A stretch of 64,000 nucleotides of DNA, taken from IMG/VR virus record IMGVR_UViG_3300012979_000001, positions 35,375-99,374 of that record. The stretch is one strand, 5' to 3'. Made by a program: the position numbers and the translations under genes. The notes beneath the pieces were generated by a model, which made no database searches, was not told the DNA's origin, and saw nothing but the letters and a program-made list of their open reading frames with translations. Every line of letters starts with the position of its first letter. Position 1 is the first letter of the stretch. Origin of the DNA: a virus (Duplodnaviria > Heunggongvirae > Uroviricota > Caudoviricetes). This document shows, one piece after another, positions 27,486-37,667 of this stretch.

Positions 27486-27514
27486 TTGACAAACGATTGT
27501 CAATGTGTTATAAT
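27486..27514 (+). promoter_or_regulatory. palindromic-box promoter of the first tRNA operon
   Basis: CTGACTTGACAAACGATTGTCAATGTGTTATAAT; leader hairpin GAAGCGAGAA/TTCTCGCTTC follows. Confidence 0.65.
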
Positions 27515-27595
27515 AATAAATGTAGCAGGAAGAATAAACAAATTGCATTGAAGCGAGAATTCTCCCCACATAGTTTTCTCGCTTCACCTACACAT

Positions 27596-27669
27596 TGCGG
27601 AGGTGGTGTAATGGCAGCACGCTAGGCTCATAACCTAGAGACGAAGTTCGAATCTTACGTCCGCACCCA
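27596..27669 (+). pseudogene. tRNA-like element, Met (CAU) anticodon arm, defective T-stem and acceptor mismatch
   Basis: perfect anticodon arm CTAGG-CTCATAA-CCTAG; TTCGAAT T-loop but only 3 bp T-stem; G.G in acceptor; no clean CCA. Confidence 0.3.
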
Positions 27670-27673
27670 ACAT

Positions 27674-27748
27674 AATCGTATAGCTTAATGGCAAAGCGTC
27701 ACCCTTGTAAAGTGAAGAAGAGTAGTTCGATTCTCTCTACGATTTCCA
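27674..27748 (+). pseudogene. tRNA-like element, Thr (UGU) anticodon, perfect acceptor and D-arm but non-pairing T-stem
   Basis: acceptor AATCGTA/TACGATT, D stem GCTT/AAGC, loop CTTGTAA, encoded CCA; T-stem AGTAG/CTCTC does not pair. Confidence 0.35.
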
Positions 27749-27757
27749 AATTTATAT

Positions 27758-27833
27758 GCCGCCGTAGCTCAGCAGGCAGAGCACCGCACTTGTAATGCGG
27801 GGGTCGTCAGTTCGATTCTGACCAGCGGCTCCA
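27758..27833 (+). tRNA. tRNA-Thr (UGU)
   Basis: cloverleaf: D GCTC/GAGC, anticodon arm CCGCA-CTTGTAA-TGCGG, T arm GTCAG-TTCGATT-CTGAC, CCA encoded. Confidence 0.75.
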
Positions 27834-27912
27834 AATTCTATTTTTGTTTTCAAGTGACCAAGCTTAGTTGCGTTTTCCATAGTCACTCTTCCTCAAAAAT
27901 AGAATTGTATAT

Positions 27913-27988
27913 TGGGATATAGCTCAGTTGGTAGAGCGGTAGACTGTTAATCTATAGGTCACAGGTTCGAGCCCTGTTATCCCAGCCA
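27913..27988 (+). tRNA. tRNA-Asn (GUU)
   Basis: acceptor TGGGATA/TATCCCA, loop CTGTTAA, T arm ACAGG-TTCGAGC-CCTGT, CCA. Confidence 0.75.
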
Positions 27989-27993
27989 TAAAT

Positions 27994-28069
27994 GCAGGTA
28001 TGGTGTCAGTGGCTAGCACCTTTGCCTTCCAAGCAAATGGGGTGAGTTCGAGTCTCACTACCTGCTCCA
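27994..28069 (+). tRNA. tRNA-Gly (UCC)
   Basis: acceptor GCAGGTA/TACCTGC, anticodon arm TTTGC-CTTCCAA-GCAAA, T arm GTGAG-TTCGAGT-CTCAC, CCA. Confidence 0.75.
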
Positions 28070-28097
28070 TTTAGAAAGGAAATAACAATGGGAGAAA

Positions 28098-28247
28098 ATG
28101 CAGAATTATTATCATTTACTGATGATAAATCAATTAGAATTACATTAACAAGTTGGTTAAGACATCATAATATTTCATATAATGATAATATGAGTAATGA
28201 AGAATTAAGACAACTATATATTAATGCAGAATGTGGCAAAATTTAAT
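28098..28247 (+). CDS. small protein (49 aa) between tRNAs
   Basis: RBS AAAGGAAATAACAATG; not in ORF track (<60 aa). Confidence 0.3.
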
Positions 28248-28249
28248 AT

Positions 28250-28326
28250 ACTCGCTTAGCTCAGTCGGTTAGAGCGCAACTCTGATAAGGTTGAGGTCGA
28301 TGGTTCGATTCCATCAGCGAGTACCA
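28250..28326 (+). tRNA. tRNA-Ile (GAU)
   Basis: acceptor ACTCGCT/AGCGAGT, loop CTGATAA, T arm GATGG-TTCGATT-CCATC, CCA. Confidence 0.75.
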
Positions 28327-28452
28327 AAAAAACTTGGCTGAAAATTGGTAAAAGGAGATGTAGGATATATGCTCTGGGAGCCAATTCCAACATAAAAAGT
28401 GTAAACAATATTTCCGTCGACAGTTTTGCCGAGTTCCTGTCATAATTAATTT

Positions 28453-28518
28453 GGTCGCTTAGCTCAGCTGGGAGAGCGTCTGCCTTACAAGCAGAATGTC
28501 GTAGGTTCGAGCCCTACA
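28453..28518 (+). tRNA. tRNA-Val (UAC)
   Basis: anticodon arm TCTGC-CTTACAA-GCAGA; T arm GTAGG-TTCGAGC-CCTAC; CCA. Confidence 0.7.
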
Positions 28519-28674
28519 GTGACCACCAAGAGAAAGACAACTCTTAAAACTCGATGGAGAAGATTCGCACTATTCCGCCTATCGTAAAAAATAAGAGGGG
28601 CAAGTGCAAACTTATATAAGTTTTATTTTAGATAATCATTTTAGATAAGAATAATCTTATGGAAGTGGTTTCTA

Positions 28675-35625: not shown

Positions 35626-35627
35626 TA

Positions 35628-36146
35628 ATGGCAGGAAATAAAAAAGTAAATATTGATGAAGAAAAAGTTATTGAAATGTATAACAATGGAGAGCCTTATG
35701 CAAAAATTGCAACAACATTGGAAGTTAGTGAAGCAAAAATCCAAAGAACTGTTACAAAATTAATAAAAGCAAGAAAAATAGAAAGAAGAGGATATAAGAG
35801 ATTTAACCCAAATCCTAAAATAGATTTAGACGAAGATGCAGTTGTTGATTATTTTAAACAAGGAAATTCAACAAAAAATGTTGGAAAAAAATTTAAAATA
35901 TCAGAGAGAACTGCAAGAGATTTAATTAAAGATTGGTTTGAAACTAATTCTACTATAGAGGAATATTATAATATTGTAAATAGAAATAGATTAAATGCAA
36001 CAAATGCAATGAGAATAAATATTTCAAGAGATGAATTGATAGCAATGAAAGAAAAAGGATTGTCAAATAGAAAAATTGCAGAATATTTTGGAATATCTCA
36101 TACTACTGTTGCCAAAGAATTGGAAAGAATTGCAAAGGGAATTTAA
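35628..36146 (+). CDS. DNA-binding protein with three HTH repeats
   Basis: three copies of an about 40-aa helix-turn-helix unit, last LSNRKIAEYFGISHTTVAKEL. Confidence 0.45.
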   Translation: MAGNKKVNIDEEKVIEMYNNGEPYAKIATTLEVSEAKIQRTVTKLIKARKIERRGYKRFNPNPKIDLDEDAVVDYFKQGNSTKNVGKKFKISERTARDLIKDWFETNSTIEEYYNIVNRNRLNATNAMRINISRDELIAMKEKGLSNRKIAEYFGISHTTVAKELERIAKGI

Positions 36147-36159
36147 AAGGAGAATTAAA

Positions 36160-36654
36160 ATGACTAAAGAATCAATGGATAAACTTGACCTAGCAATTAA
36201 AAAGCTAGAAGAAGATATACAAAGTGGTAAGTTTGAAGAATATTTTAAAAACCTAATGGAAAAGAAGAAAAAAAGAAAAGAATATGTAAATAGTAAAGAA
36301 TACTTTAATTGGTTAGAACAATTTATAATAAAGTTAGAGTCAATGAAGAGAATGTATGGAACAGAAATGTTCTTATATATAGATAAAGACCAATTTACAG
36401 AACAAGATATAGAAAATGAAAAATATATTTGTGAACCAATCTTTGAGCTATTTGAAGAAATAGGGTTGGCACAAGGACTGGAAGTAAAAGAAGATTGGAG
36501 TTGGTCTTTTCCAAGTTATGAATGGTATTTTAAATTTAACAATAAAATGTATTTTGCTTGCAAGATGATTGGGCAGGGTACAGAATATATTGTTAGGTCT
36601 GAAAAAAGTGATGTGAAAGATTATTTAGATTTGGATTATTATTTTTCTAAATAA
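36160..36654 (+). CDS. hypothetical protein (164 aa)
   Basis: start reassigned to ATG with RBS AAAAGGAGA. Confidence 0.45.
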   Translation: MTKESMDKLDLAIKKLEEDIQSGKFEEYFKNLMEKKKKRKEYVNSKEYFNWLEQFIIKLESMKRMYGTEMFLYIDKDQFTEQDIENEKYICEPIFELFEEIGLAQGLEVKEDWSWSFPSYEWYFKFNNKMYFACKMIGQGTEYIVRSEKSDVKDYLDLDYYFSK

Positions 36655-36668
36655 TTTTTCCATTTAAC

Positions 36669-36697
36669 TTGACAAATCTTTGCCAGTGTGCTATAAT
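36669..36697 (+). promoter_or_regulatory. palindromic-box promoter of the tRNA-Phe/Lys/Cys operon
   Basis: TTGACAAATCTTTGCCAGTGTGCTATAAT. Confidence 0.65.
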
Positions 36698-36779
36698 AAC
36701 ATTGTCCTTGCAAAAGGATGTTGTTATTTTTTTTAAATATTCATTTGTTCCGAAGGGTAGGGAACTACTCTTCGCATAT

Positions 36780-36855
36780 GCCTCGATAGCTCAGTTGGTA
36801 GAGCAGGGGACTGAAAATCCCCGTGTCACTGGTTCGATTCCCGTTCGAGGCACCA
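36780..36855 (+). tRNA. tRNA-Phe (GAA)
   Basis: acceptor GCCTCGA/TCGAGGC, anticodon arm GGGGA-CTGAAAA-TCCCC, CCA; driven by promoter 36669-36697. Confidence 0.8.
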
Positions 36856-36862
36856 TTTTTAT

Positions 36863-36938
36863 GAATGTGTAGCTCAGTCGGTAGAGCATCTGACTTTTAA
36901 TCAGGTTGTCGGAGGTTCGATTCCTCTCACGTTCACCA
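36863..36938 (+). tRNA. tRNA-Lys (UUU)
   Basis: acceptor GAATGTG/CACGTTC, anticodon loop CTTTTAA, CCA. Confidence 0.7.
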
Positions 36939-36940
36939 AT

Positions 36941-37017
36941 GGTGTATTAGCCAAGCTGGTTAAGGCAACAGTCTGCAAAACTGTTATGCGTTGGTTCGAA
37001 TCCAACATACACCTCCA
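36941..37017 (+). tRNA. tRNA-Cys (GCA)
   Basis: acceptor GGTGTAT/ATACACC, anticodon arm ACAGT-CTGCAAA-ACTGT, CCA. Confidence 0.75.
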
Positions 37018-37050
37018 AAAAATTTTTTTAAAAAATTTTTAAAAAAACAC

Positions 37051-37079
37051 TTGACAAACAATTGTCAATATGTTATAAT
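37051..37079 (+). promoter_or_regulatory. palindromic-box promoter of the long noncoding transcript
   Basis: TTGACAAACAATTGTCAATATGTTATAAT. Confidence 0.65.
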
Positions 37080-37084
37080 AATAT

Positions 37085-37595
37085 TATAGTTAATTAGTAC
37101 ATTGAAAAATGTTAATATAAATTATGGTTCGGCTTCGGAACCTTACGGATAAACTGGTGACAGTATAAAGTGATACATTAAATTGTATTGCGTAGCATTA
37201 CCGCTCTTTATAAGAATATGTCTATATCTCCTTATAAATAAATGGATGCTATCCACAGAAAGCCAACAATGAAACGCTGATGACCCTAAGTCCAACGAGA
37301 AAGTTCTTGAGGATAAGGTCAGCAAGTCGAGGGACTATCCATCCTAAGTGAGAAGAAATTCAATAATTGATTTGTTGTTATATAGTAAAAAATCTGATAA
37401 CAAAGACTATTGCTATATAAATATATAAAACTTGTTTTAACCCTGAAAAGGAAAGAACTCTTATGTTTGCAATAACATATAAGTATTATATAAGCTAAGT
37501 TTCAGTTAGAAACGATGGTAGAGTTATGATGGATGGGCTGTCTCCAAAAGAGATAGATGTCCAAAGGCAACCCTCATAATTCAAATGGATAATTA
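37085..37595 (+). ncRNA. about 500-nt noncoding transcript region with GC-richer structured segments, upstream of a tRNA-like element
   Basis: consensus promoter 37051-37079; no RBS-led ORF; hairpins such as GGTTCGGCTTCGGAACC; only spurious minus-strand ORFs. Confidence 0.35.
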
Positions 37596-37667
37596 GCGAA
37601 TTTAGCCAAGAGGTAAGGCAAGTCTCTGTTAAAGATTGAATCGTAGGTTCGACTCCTACAATCCGCA
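37596..37667 (+). tRNA. tRNA-like, Asn (GUU) anticodon, lacks encoded CCA, A.C mismatch in acceptor
   Basis: complete 72-nt cloverleaf: D GCC/GGC, anticodon arm AGTCT-CTGTTAA-AGATT, T arm GTAGG-TTCGACT-CCTAC; followed by CAT instead of CCA. Confidence 0.5.

Follow-up and report, generated by a model that had tools for sequence, protein, structure and literature searches.

A tRNA island with a divergent GOLLD RNA and a candidate pseudoknotted RNA in a probable large gut phage

GOLLD RNAs occur in phages and prophages, often within transfer RNA (tRNA) islands, and combine a conserved 3' domain with a variable 5' domain; the linker sometimes carries tRNAs (PMC12286853). Cryo-electron microscopy showed the env-38 GOLLD to be a 14-mer cage, its linker disordered and pointing to the inside (PMC12286853), and an unexpressed pseudo-tRNA has been described inside the GOLLD of Mycobacterium tRNA arrays (PMC6582537). 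Here we analyse a window of 64,000 nucleotides (nt) of caudoviricete DNA (IMG/VR record IMGVR_UViG_3300012979_000001, positions 35,375 to 99,374), in which the region 27486-38104 holds 20 tRNA genes, a number of protein genes, a pseudoknotted RNA and, at its 3' end, a divergent GOLLD RNA gene. We consider it likely that this region is the translation-RNA module of a large, AT-rich, uncultured gut phage. The phage tRNA array and the divergent GOLLD are of known kinds, and the pseudoknotted RNA, which is without a catalogued (Rfam) family, may be new.

Clusters of tRNA genes are expected in large phages, and the island itself is in this respect ordinary. As in the clusters of T4, T5, KVP40 and the cluster C mycobacteriophages, many tRNAs lie on one strand in what would be polycistronic units, small open reading frames (ORFs) and nuclease genes are interleaved with them, the anticodons prefer the phage's own codons, and several of the tRNAs have non-canonical pairs. 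Unlike those clusters, nearly all tRNAs here encode CCA, and an Arg tRNA is absent despite heavy use of AGA. The island is set further apart by its GOLLD RNA, by a putative tRNA-like punctuation element and by the unclassified pseudoknotted RNA, to which relatives add a transfer-messenger RNA (tmRNA).

The genes flanking the island downstream match phage replication PHROGs, and the wider context includes a DnaB-like helicase, a RecJ-like exonuclease, a DNA polymerase III alpha-type protein in two ORFs, an ATP-dependent DNA ligase and a Dda-like helicase. Megablast of the island found no close DNA relative among GenBank phages, only short stretches of tRNA sequence being matched, and among cultured phages [Clostridium] innocuum phage Amboise has the most similar DNA polymerase (49% amino-acid identity). 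The relatives with syntenic islands are IMG/VR and metagenome contigs of 128-196 kb (given L numbers below, with L001 the closest), and further relatives are contigs binned into gut metagenome-assembled genomes (MAGs). Relatives of the island's SPFH protein, at 57-78% identity, are encoded at 24 viral loci and at 14 others in MAG or genome contigs, those in gut MAGs being labelled Clostridia, Clostridiaceae, Bacilli and Ca. Ventrenecus, while a search for further relatives with the RNA repair enzyme encoded downstream returned two viral contigs only and none in genomes. The host is probably a member of the Bacillota.

The tRNA set and its predicted role

ARAGORN on the whole window and Rfam model RF00005 agreed on 20 tRNA genes, all on the plus strand and spread over 10.1 kb from 27596 to 37668 (Table 1). 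The covariance model, which has a gathering score of 29, accepted all 20 at RF00005 scores between 51.6 and 74.7 bits, and the mosaic tRNA island served by repeated consensus promoters that the original prediction had proposed is borne out, positions and anticodons included. Its total of 18 intact and three degenerate tRNAs was off; its own list named 17 intact genes, which with the three makes 20. CCA is encoded in 19 of the genes, that at 37596-37668 being the sole one without it. The island spans 16 amino acids, with the anticodons UGU, CAU and GUU each present twice, and the ARAGORN structure of tRNA-Ala (UGC) contains the G3:U70 pair that had been claimed. ARAGORN found no Arg, Pro, His or Trp tRNA within the 64-kb window, again as foreseen, an absence that holds for the window, which is part of a genome of perhaps 130-195 kb. 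Among the relatives, the island tRNAs include Pro and Trp in L001 and His in L081, and no Arg tRNA occurs in any of the sequence pieces examined.

Host-type sigma-70/sigmaA promoters with an extended -10 element would drive the units of the island. Matches to TTGACA-N16-18-TATAAT number 20 in the window, where 0.21 would be expected, in agreement with the consensus promoters reported earlier; six of these sites fall between 26223 and 38124, and those in or at the edge of the island (27486, 33097, 36669, 37051 and 38124) all match at 12 of 12 positions and carry the TG of an extended -10. From these we predict three units. The first, a putative operon of some 5.3 kb (27486 to about 32836), would place 15 tRNAs and the small protein genes interspersed among them on one polycistronic transcript; a stable leader hairpin (27520-27595; leader fold z = -5.2) follows its promoter, and tRNA-Ser(GCU) lies about 170 nt past a weak terminator-like hairpin at its end. 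The second is a putative tRNA-Phe-Lys-Cys operon, and the third would be the separate GOLLD gene of about 1 kb (37051-38104), whose linker, joining the two domains, holds the twentieth tRNA. Hairpins resembling terminators are present at 33173-33202 and 38079-38104 and, in weaker form, at 29152-29169 and 32821-32836, and the spacer 32819-32989 also folds stably (z = -5.0).

Codon statistics were taken from 74 ORFs with 17,151 codons. For 16 amino acids the most-used codon is read by the tRNA set, and the fraction of codon occurrences covered is 77% under strict wobble, 85% if U34 reads U-ending codons in four-codon boxes and 88% with one CAU tRNA as Ile2, in keeping with the earlier view that the anticodons suit A/U-ending codons. 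ATA, which bears on a possible Ile2 identity of a CAU tRNA, is used 583 times. Most likely, tRNAs that read the phage's preferred A/U-ending codons would sustain phage translation in the face of scarce, degraded or cleaved host tRNAs. Of the four amino acids for which the window has no tRNA, three rank near the bottom in usage (Trp 1.1%, His 1.5%, Pro 2.5%), the exception being Arg at 3.8%. The missing Arg tRNA had been explained by an unused CGG, which does not follow: CGG (2 codons) does not stand apart in rarity from CCG (4), CGC (5) and CCC (6), its scarcity being the ordinary bias of an AT-rich genome, and the much-used AGA likewise has no phage tRNA in the window.

The first two genes of the operon (elements 1 and 2) had been described as degenerate tRNAs with non-pairing T-stems. 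The defects are there, with three of five T-stem pairs formed in each; the degenerate status is unproven, as both genes pass the covariance model and keep CCA. We give only a little less than an even chance to their being decaying, functionless pseudogenes carried in the operon. Apart from the T-stems, such decay would account for a G.G at acceptor pair 7:66 of element 1 and a C.A at 31:39 of element 2 (both in the ARAGORN structures), as well as for the broken acceptor stem of the element 1 homologue in L001, a 66-nt object called by relaxed ARAGORN only and, when further copies were searched for, the sole match. For element 2, L001 offers no homologue, and the next gene downstream of it in the window is an intact tRNA-Thr(UGU). 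However, both elements score more than 20 bits above the Rfam tRNA gathering score, with encoded CCA and intact anticodon arms, and by covariance-model score the three "degenerate" elements (51.6, 57.6 and 61.6 bits) do not separate from the accepted tRNA-Gly (53.4 bits). It should also be considered that the D and anticodon arms of element 1, in a comparison of two sequences only, are conserved nearly unchanged between the window and L001 while the flanks diverged, so that selection on that half is possible.

A gene for a 753-aa protein, 3.4 kb downstream of the island, has Pfam domains AAA_33 (residues 4-138), Metallophos (176-359) and RNA_lig_T4_1 (470-677), and is a predicted RNA (tRNA) repair enzyme, these domains corresponding to the activities for healing and sealing a cleaved anticodon loop. 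Its P-loop kinase, metallophosphoesterase and Rnl1-family ligase domains have their counterparts in T4 Pnkp plus Rnl1 and in bacterial Pnkp-type enzymes; in contrast to the T4 pair, all three predicted activities lie in one polypeptide, for which no partner such as Hen1 was identified. Such an enzyme would fit the theme of translation supply. Just upstream of it are a weak HAD_PNKP-like ORF (39335-39835) and a separate metallophosphoesterase ORF (39837-40334), the three making up an RNA-repair neighbourhood beside the tRNA island.

The repair enzyme also raises the possibility, which we regard as appreciable but would on the whole bet against, that the tRNA set is mainly a counter-defence kit, in which spare tRNAs and a resealing enzyme act against host anticodon nucleases or tRNA depletion. 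T4 and PrrC provide the precedent, and phage tRNAs that evade tRNA-targeting defences have been published. The kinase-phosphatase-Rnl1-type fusion is the equivalent of the T4 Pnkp and Rnl1 pair, the set, with 16 amino acids, reaches beyond a few rare codons, three isoacceptors are duplicated, and the tmRNA of relatives is another translation-rescue RNA. The anticodons, on the other hand, are exactly those which the AT-rich codon usage predicts, and the host nuclease to be evaded is a hypothetical one. Counter-defence and codon supply are mutually compatible, and codon supply is the account towards which we lean.

A tRNA-like element and a pseudoknotted RNA upstream of tRNA-Ser

The 309-nt interval that separates the SPFH gene from tRNA-Ser(UGA) is conserved in L001, L002, L080 and L081, and consists of a tRNA-like element (32453-32523) followed by an RNA of about 200 nt (32524-32726) with pseudoknotted helices (Table 1). 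Its structure was derived with RNAalifold on 5 and 12 sequences, and pairs were counted on 11. In the loop-loop helix both sides have changed at all seven pairs and 100% of cells are paired, helix H4 has five of seven pairs compensated, also at 100%, and over all helices 83% of cells are paired against 33-49% when the pairing is slid, with 20 compensated pairs against 4-9. The blocks AAATCAACTA, TGAAGGnAATGT and TTAGTTGTTT are invariant, and the spacing from the first to the second was 91 nt in the five sequences measured. A pattern based on these blocks matched 11 IMG/VR contigs, which measure 21-196 kb and in ten cases exceed 60 kb, and did not match smaller phages carrying SPFH genes. Against 4227 Rfam 15 models, a comparison to which catalogues such as that of PMC10690425 are external, there was no match at E<=1 beyond the flanking tRNAs; sensitive Rfam scans of 29140-29815, 30655-31240 and 32410-33595 likewise returned no family beyond tRNAs, leaving ROOL, tmRNA, riboswitches and families of that sort unsupported in those segments. 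The CGAGA(G)AAG block was considered as a 23S sarcin-ricin loop and dropped, its closing pair not being conserved across homologues and the resemblance probably a coincidence. With its unusually clean covariation and interchangeable 5'-end solutions this RNA, if undescribed, is a ready target for work on structure and function.

The tRNA-like element, which the original prediction overlooked together with a tRNA relic at 29163-29249, was found in the sensitive Rfam scans; ARAGORN reported it, as "tRNA-???", under relaxed settings alone. Across five phages its acceptor, D and T stems covary, while in place of a common anticodon arm each phage has a short hairpin of its own. It recalls MALAT1/mascRNA and mitochondrial tRNA punctuation in retaining acceptor, D and T arms, which are recognised by RNase P and RNase Z, in having no usable anticodon loop and in its position precisely at the 5' end of a conserved noncoding RNA; it differs in its bacterial/phage origin, in lying upstream of the RNA and in that its cleavage is a prediction. 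We propose it as a putative RNase P/Z cleavage signal which, together with the tRNA-Ser downstream, would free the RNA of about 200 nt. In favour of such a signal, the 5' neighbour of the conserved RNA varies by phage between the tRNA-like element, a genuine tRNA-Leu(UAA) and a TTGACA-N17-TATAAT promoter (four phages), while tRNA-Ser usually lies 0-500 nt downstream. The tRNA-like element is probably a processing signal and the pseudoknotted RNA probably a discrete product, judging from this arrangement.

Taking the parts together, we tentatively put forward a reading that we believe has somewhat less than an even prospect of being right. In it, 32524-32726 belongs to an undescribed class of compact, multiply pseudoknotted phage RNAs of about 165-200 nt, confined to island-bearing large gut phages; its ends are made by tRNA-type punctuation, with a tRNA-like element, a true tRNA or its own promoter at the 5' side and usually tRNA-Ser at the 3' side; it acts in trans on the translation apparatus; and, as a compatible second part, RNase P and RNase Z excise the linker tRNA of the GOLLD, splitting the cage RNA in two and setting free a tRNA with an anticodon that switches between Asn and Ile among close relatives.

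We find it improbable that 32524-32726 is merely a structured spacer which guides tRNA-Ser maturation and has no function of its own. Its place inside a tRNA operon, the tRNA-Ser within 0-500 nt downstream in nearly all relatives and the stable folding of other island spacers would all suit a spacer. Yet the four phages with a consensus promoter of its own have it in place of an upstream tRNA, the internal spacing is fixed in the five sequences noted above, and a fully compensated loop-loop pseudoknot with several invariant single-stranded blocks amounts to constraint far beyond the needs of a processing hairpin.

The divergent GOLLD RNA at the 3' end

When 37080-38120 was scanned alone, 37521-37995 matched the Rfam GOLLD model RF02032 from end to end (positions 1-416 of 416), with 85.3 bits and E=1.9e-22, and a homologue in L040 matched with 64 bits (E=4.5e-16). 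Of the consensus pairs of the model 92 of 98 are present, 84 of these 92 being canonical. The Rfam structure and the linker cloverleaf were then projected onto a four-sequence alignment (the window and three homologues), with slid pairing as the control: 91.3% of cells are paired against 36-43%, and nine pairs have changed on both sides against 0-2. RNAalifold of the whole unit gave 244 pairs, 23 of them compensated, about half (~13) in the 5' domain (37087-37520), which is conserved in relatives and has a fold z of -2.6. The surrounding 37019-38279 is 77% identical to L001 over 1.3 kb, conserved like coding genes and with obvious compensatory changes, and contig Ga0233379_1003871 matches the window at 100% identity across 37670-38330. 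Given the RF02032 match, the covariation and the published GOLLD anatomy, 37051-38104 is a divergent GOLLD RNA gene of standard anatomy and not a degenerate tRNA behind a leader. The original prediction had a CCA-less Asn-like tRNA of degenerate type ending a 500-nt noncoding transcript; this tRNA is the linker tRNA of a GOLLD of about 0.9 kb and stands near the centre of a noncoding unit some 1 kb long, which runs from 37051 to the terminator at 38079-38104.

The linker tRNA sits in the unpaired linker of the model, between the first hairpin and the GCAAAAGU block. Its T-stem is held by three compensated pairs, the acceptor stem has an A.C mismatch in every sequence, the discriminator is A, and the anticodon is GTT in the window and GAT in L001, L040 and L050. 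Our comparators were env-38, the Lactobacillus brevis prophage copy and the GOLLD inside Mycobacterium tRNA arrays. The structured 5' domain of about 430 nt is similar in length to that of env-38 (420 nt), the location is likewise a phage tRNA island, and a tRNA directly upstream of the GCAAAAGU block agrees with the literature and with L037, where a tRNA-like element abuts the same position; among other viral loci with the GOLLD pattern, 7 of 11 have tRNAs nearby. Unlike canonical viral GOLLDs, this clade scores 64-85 bits and is very AT-rich; it is small and was found only in large gut-phage contigs. The linker tRNA, unlike the unexpressed pseudo-tRNA of Mycobacterium, is well formed (61.6 bits), and its anticodon varies between GUU and GAU in close relatives.

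By homology, the RNA presumably folds and assembles like characterised GOLLDs, as a 14-subunit cage with the linker facing the interior. In Bacillota, tRNA precursors without CCA are normal substrates of RNase Z, and the lack of CCA in the linker tRNA is therefore compatible with its endonucleolytic release. A clade in which a well-formed linker tRNA of variable anticodon is combined with a defined promoter and terminator offers a compact system for asking if the linker tRNA is released or kept in the cage. GOLLD RNAs are now known as giant RNA-only cages, and this divergent member slipped past standard Rfam annotation; sensitive local scans of long noncoding gaps in phage tRNA islands can recover divergent GOLLDs.

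That 37087-38104 is instead an unrelated long leader, a spacer or a small protein gene (the 72-aa ORF 37817-38035) with a chance model match is scarcely credible: it would suit a score below the gathering score and standard scans that did not report GOLLD, but not the E-values of both the full-model match and the independent L040 homologue, the canonical consensus pairs, a structure taken from Rfam independently of these sequences that pairs and is compensated far above the slid control, a size, two-domain layout, linker tRNA and tRNA-island setting in agreement with published anatomy, or the 1-nt indel inside the ORF in all three relatives, for which the ORF was rejected as a coding gene.

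Several points weigh against seeing the island as a translation-RNA module with a GOLLD. The GOLLD score of 85.3 bits is below the Rfam gathering score of 150, canonical viral GOLLDs reaching 207-240, although a gathering score is a curation cut-off and not a structural feature, and the shortfall comes partly from the 72-nt tRNA insertion and from sequence divergence. Rfam scans at the gathering score and by E-value over 12 kb gave tRNAs only, a 7.9-kb scan missed the L001 homologue too, and the GOLLD covariation comes from four sequences of just two lineages; how the GOLLD part works is argued by homology. The first two tRNAs may be non-functional. AGA, with 544 uses and 83% of Arg codons, is without a phage tRNA in the window and fits pure codon supply poorly, and the codon fit was judged on phage codons only. 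Lastly, the transcription units and the expression, processing and aminoacylation of their products are read from sequence. The presence in one neighbourhood of the GOLLD, chaperone and membrane-scaffold genes, tRNAs, the tmRNA of relatives and a repair enzyme supports the idea of an integrated module for the maintenance of translation.

Protein genes, promoters and other features

Table 1. Positions of features in the 64,000-nt window, and of the tmRNA genes in related contigs.
Feature	Position	Strand	Evidence or remark
Example promoter sites	5694-5722; 26223-26251; 27486-27514; 38124-38152; 45829-45857		
Promoter P1 (TTGACAAACGATTGTCAATGTGTTATAAT), head of first tRNA/mRNA operon	27486-27514	+	12/12 match, TG extended -10
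Element 1, CAU anticodon, encodes CCA	27596-27669	+	51.6 bits (Rfam), 3/5 T-stem pairs
Element 2, UGU anticodon, encodes CCA	27674-27748	+	57.6 bits (Rfam), 3/5 T-stem pairs
tRNA-Thr(UGU)	27758-27833	+	ARAGORN, Rfam
tRNA-Asn(GUU)	27913-27988	+	ARAGORN, Rfam
tRNA-Gly(UCC)	27994-28069	+	ARAGORN, Rfam
Conserved 52-aa ORF	28088-28246	+	region conserved in L001, L002, L003
tRNA-Ile(GAU)	28250-28326	+	ARAGORN, Rfam
tRNA-Val(UAC)	28453-28528	+	ARAGORN, Rfam
PD-(D/E)XK nuclease, 127 aa, between tRNA-Val and tRNA-Asp	28675-29058	+	Pfam PDDEXK_5, E=5.6e-16
tRNA-Asp(GUC)	29075-29151	+	ARAGORN, Rfam
tRNA relic (long-arm type), Asp-Glu spacer	29163-29249	+	relaxed ARAGORN only
tRNA-Glu(UUC)	29317-29391	+	ARAGORN, Rfam
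tRNA-Ala(UGC)	30042-30118	+	ARAGORN, Rfam
tRNA-Gln(UUG)	30123-30198	+	ARAGORN, Rfam
Hsp20/alpha-crystallin small heat-shock gene	30260-30658	+	Pfam HSP20, E=7e-9; ~80% DNA identity to L001
tRNA(CAU), Met, fMet or Ile2	30823-30899	+	ARAGORN, Rfam
tRNA-Leu(UAA)	30905-30991	+	ARAGORN, Rfam
ORF	31233-31481	+	
tRNA-Tyr(GUA)	31490-31575	+	ARAGORN, Rfam
SPFH/Band 7 gene	31602-32417	+	Pfam Band_7, E=4.8e-30
tRNA-like element: acceptor, D and T arms; no proper anticodon loop, no CCA	32453-32523	+	Rfam tRNA 31.3 bits, gathering score 29
Pseudoknotted RNA, ~200 nt	32524-32726	+	covariation, no Rfam match
Helix H0	32538-32544 with 32560-32566	+	
Long-range helix, CAACTA with TAGTTG	32571-32576 (in AAATCAACTA, 32567-32576) with 32702-32707 (in TTAGTTGTTT, 32701-32710)	+	
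Helix H2	32585-32591 with 32608-32614	+	
Loop-loop helix	32598-32604 with 32646-32652	+	
Helix H4	32634-32640 with 32662-32668	+	
3' hairpin	32692-32695 with 32715-32718	+	
tRNA-Ser(UGA)	32727-32818	+	ARAGORN, Rfam
tRNA-Ser(GCU)	32990-33080	+	ARAGORN, Rfam
Promoter of short transcript	33097-33125	+	perfect consensus
Near-consensus promoter of protein cassette	33528-33557	+	
Ros/MucR-type zinc-finger protein	33586-34080	+	Pfam
Weak ParB/GmrSD_N-like protein	34077-35042	+	Pfam
Small ORFs in cassette		+	
Triple helix-turn-helix (HTH) protein	35628-36146	+	Pfam
ORF	36160-36654	+	
Promoter P3, Phe-Lys-Cys operon	36669-36697	+	perfect consensus
tRNA-Phe(GAA)	36780-36855	+	ARAGORN, Rfam
tRNA-Lys(UUU)	36863-36938	+	ARAGORN, Rfam
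tRNA-Cys(GCA)	36941-37017	+	ARAGORN, Rfam
GOLLD promoter	37051-37079	+	perfect consensus
GOLLD 5' domain	about 37087-37520	+	RNAalifold
GOLLD first 3'-domain hairpin	37521-37582	+	RF02032
GOLLD linker tRNA, GUU anticodon, without CCA	37596-37667	+	61.6 bits
GOLLD remaining 3' domain	37668-37995	+	RF02032
GOLLD AT-rich tail, then intrinsic terminator	terminator 38079-38104	+	
Polynucleotide kinase / metallophosphoesterase / Rnl1-type RNA ligase fusion, 753 aa	41066-43327	+	PHROG 8238 "RNA ligase", E=2e-207
tmRNA of relatives	L001 13444-13800; L040 2847-3202; L049 5352-5708; L080 3057-3412; L081 6226-6576		

Pfam confirmed the protein genes that had been noted among the tRNAs (Hsp20, SPFH and a nuclease fold). 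The PD-(D/E)XK nuclease gene is probably a mobile insertion, its product a putative nuclease of homing type; in keeping with mobility, the segment is missing from L001, where only 83 nt separate tRNA-Val from tRNA-Asp. A protein cassette (33528-36654) interrupts the island in the interval where relatives have a tmRNA. ARAGORN and Rfam found no tmRNA in the window: the relatives' gene lies between tRNA-Ser(GCU) and tRNA-Phe, an interval filled here (34077-36654) by protein genes, and its tags read ANEELVAA, ANRELVAA or ANAELIAA.

Two spacers on either side of tRNA-Glu also bear comparison with L001. In the relic of the Asp-Glu spacer, the T-arm CTGG-TTCGATT-CCAG covaries with AAGG-TTCGATT-CCTT in that contig. 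Beyond tRNA-Glu, a 65-nt block with two UUCG hairpins (29561-29625) is 88% identical to the sequence directly 3' of tRNA-Glu in L001, and the 170 nt that precede the block are an insertion in the window relative to L001.

Thirteen of the 20 consensus promoters share the arrangement TTGACAAA-nn(n)-TTTGTCA-n-TRTG-n-TATAAT, in which the spacer holds an inverted copy of the -35 hexamer, and a conserved TTTTCCAYYTRAC block lies upstream of several island promoters (27486, 36669 and 38124). The inverted copy or the upstream block may serve a phage or host regulator as operator, or may have to do with promoter strength. Five copies of TACCTGTRAR, 10 bp apart (33302-33351), just upstream of a TTGACA-like promoter at 33372 and of the Ros/MucR-type cassette, look like a putative regulator-binding array. 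Between tRNA-Ser(GCU) and this array, 33097-33207 combines a consensus promoter with a terminator of 13-bp stem about 45 nt past the -10, giving a predicted RNA of about 75 nt (fold z = -3.5) which is not conserved in L001.

Downstream of the GOLLD terminator, the 175-nt leader 38158-38332, from the promoter at 38124 to an ORF at 38333, has a very stable fold (z = -4.8) and is partly conserved in L001, with the long hairpins TAGATAG...CTATCTA and ATAATAGTAGG...CCTACTATTAT. This candidate cis-regulatory element had no match in the 12-kb Rfam scan, which did not include a scan of the leader alone.

An altered genetic code was considered and rejected, as code 11 gives long ORFs, with 58 TAA, 11 TAG and 5 TGA stops, and there is no suppressor tRNA. 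In the related phage L096, ARAGORN called the tRNA upstream of the pseudoknotted RNA (1034-1115) with the amber-reading anticodon CUA, and this phage may recode a stop codon; nothing like it occurs in the window. Among the replication genes, that for the DNA polymerase III alpha-type protein consists of two overlapping ORFs (55754-57796 and 57744-59153), which match the N- and C-terminal parts of phrog_405 and could represent a natural split, a frameshift or an intervening element.

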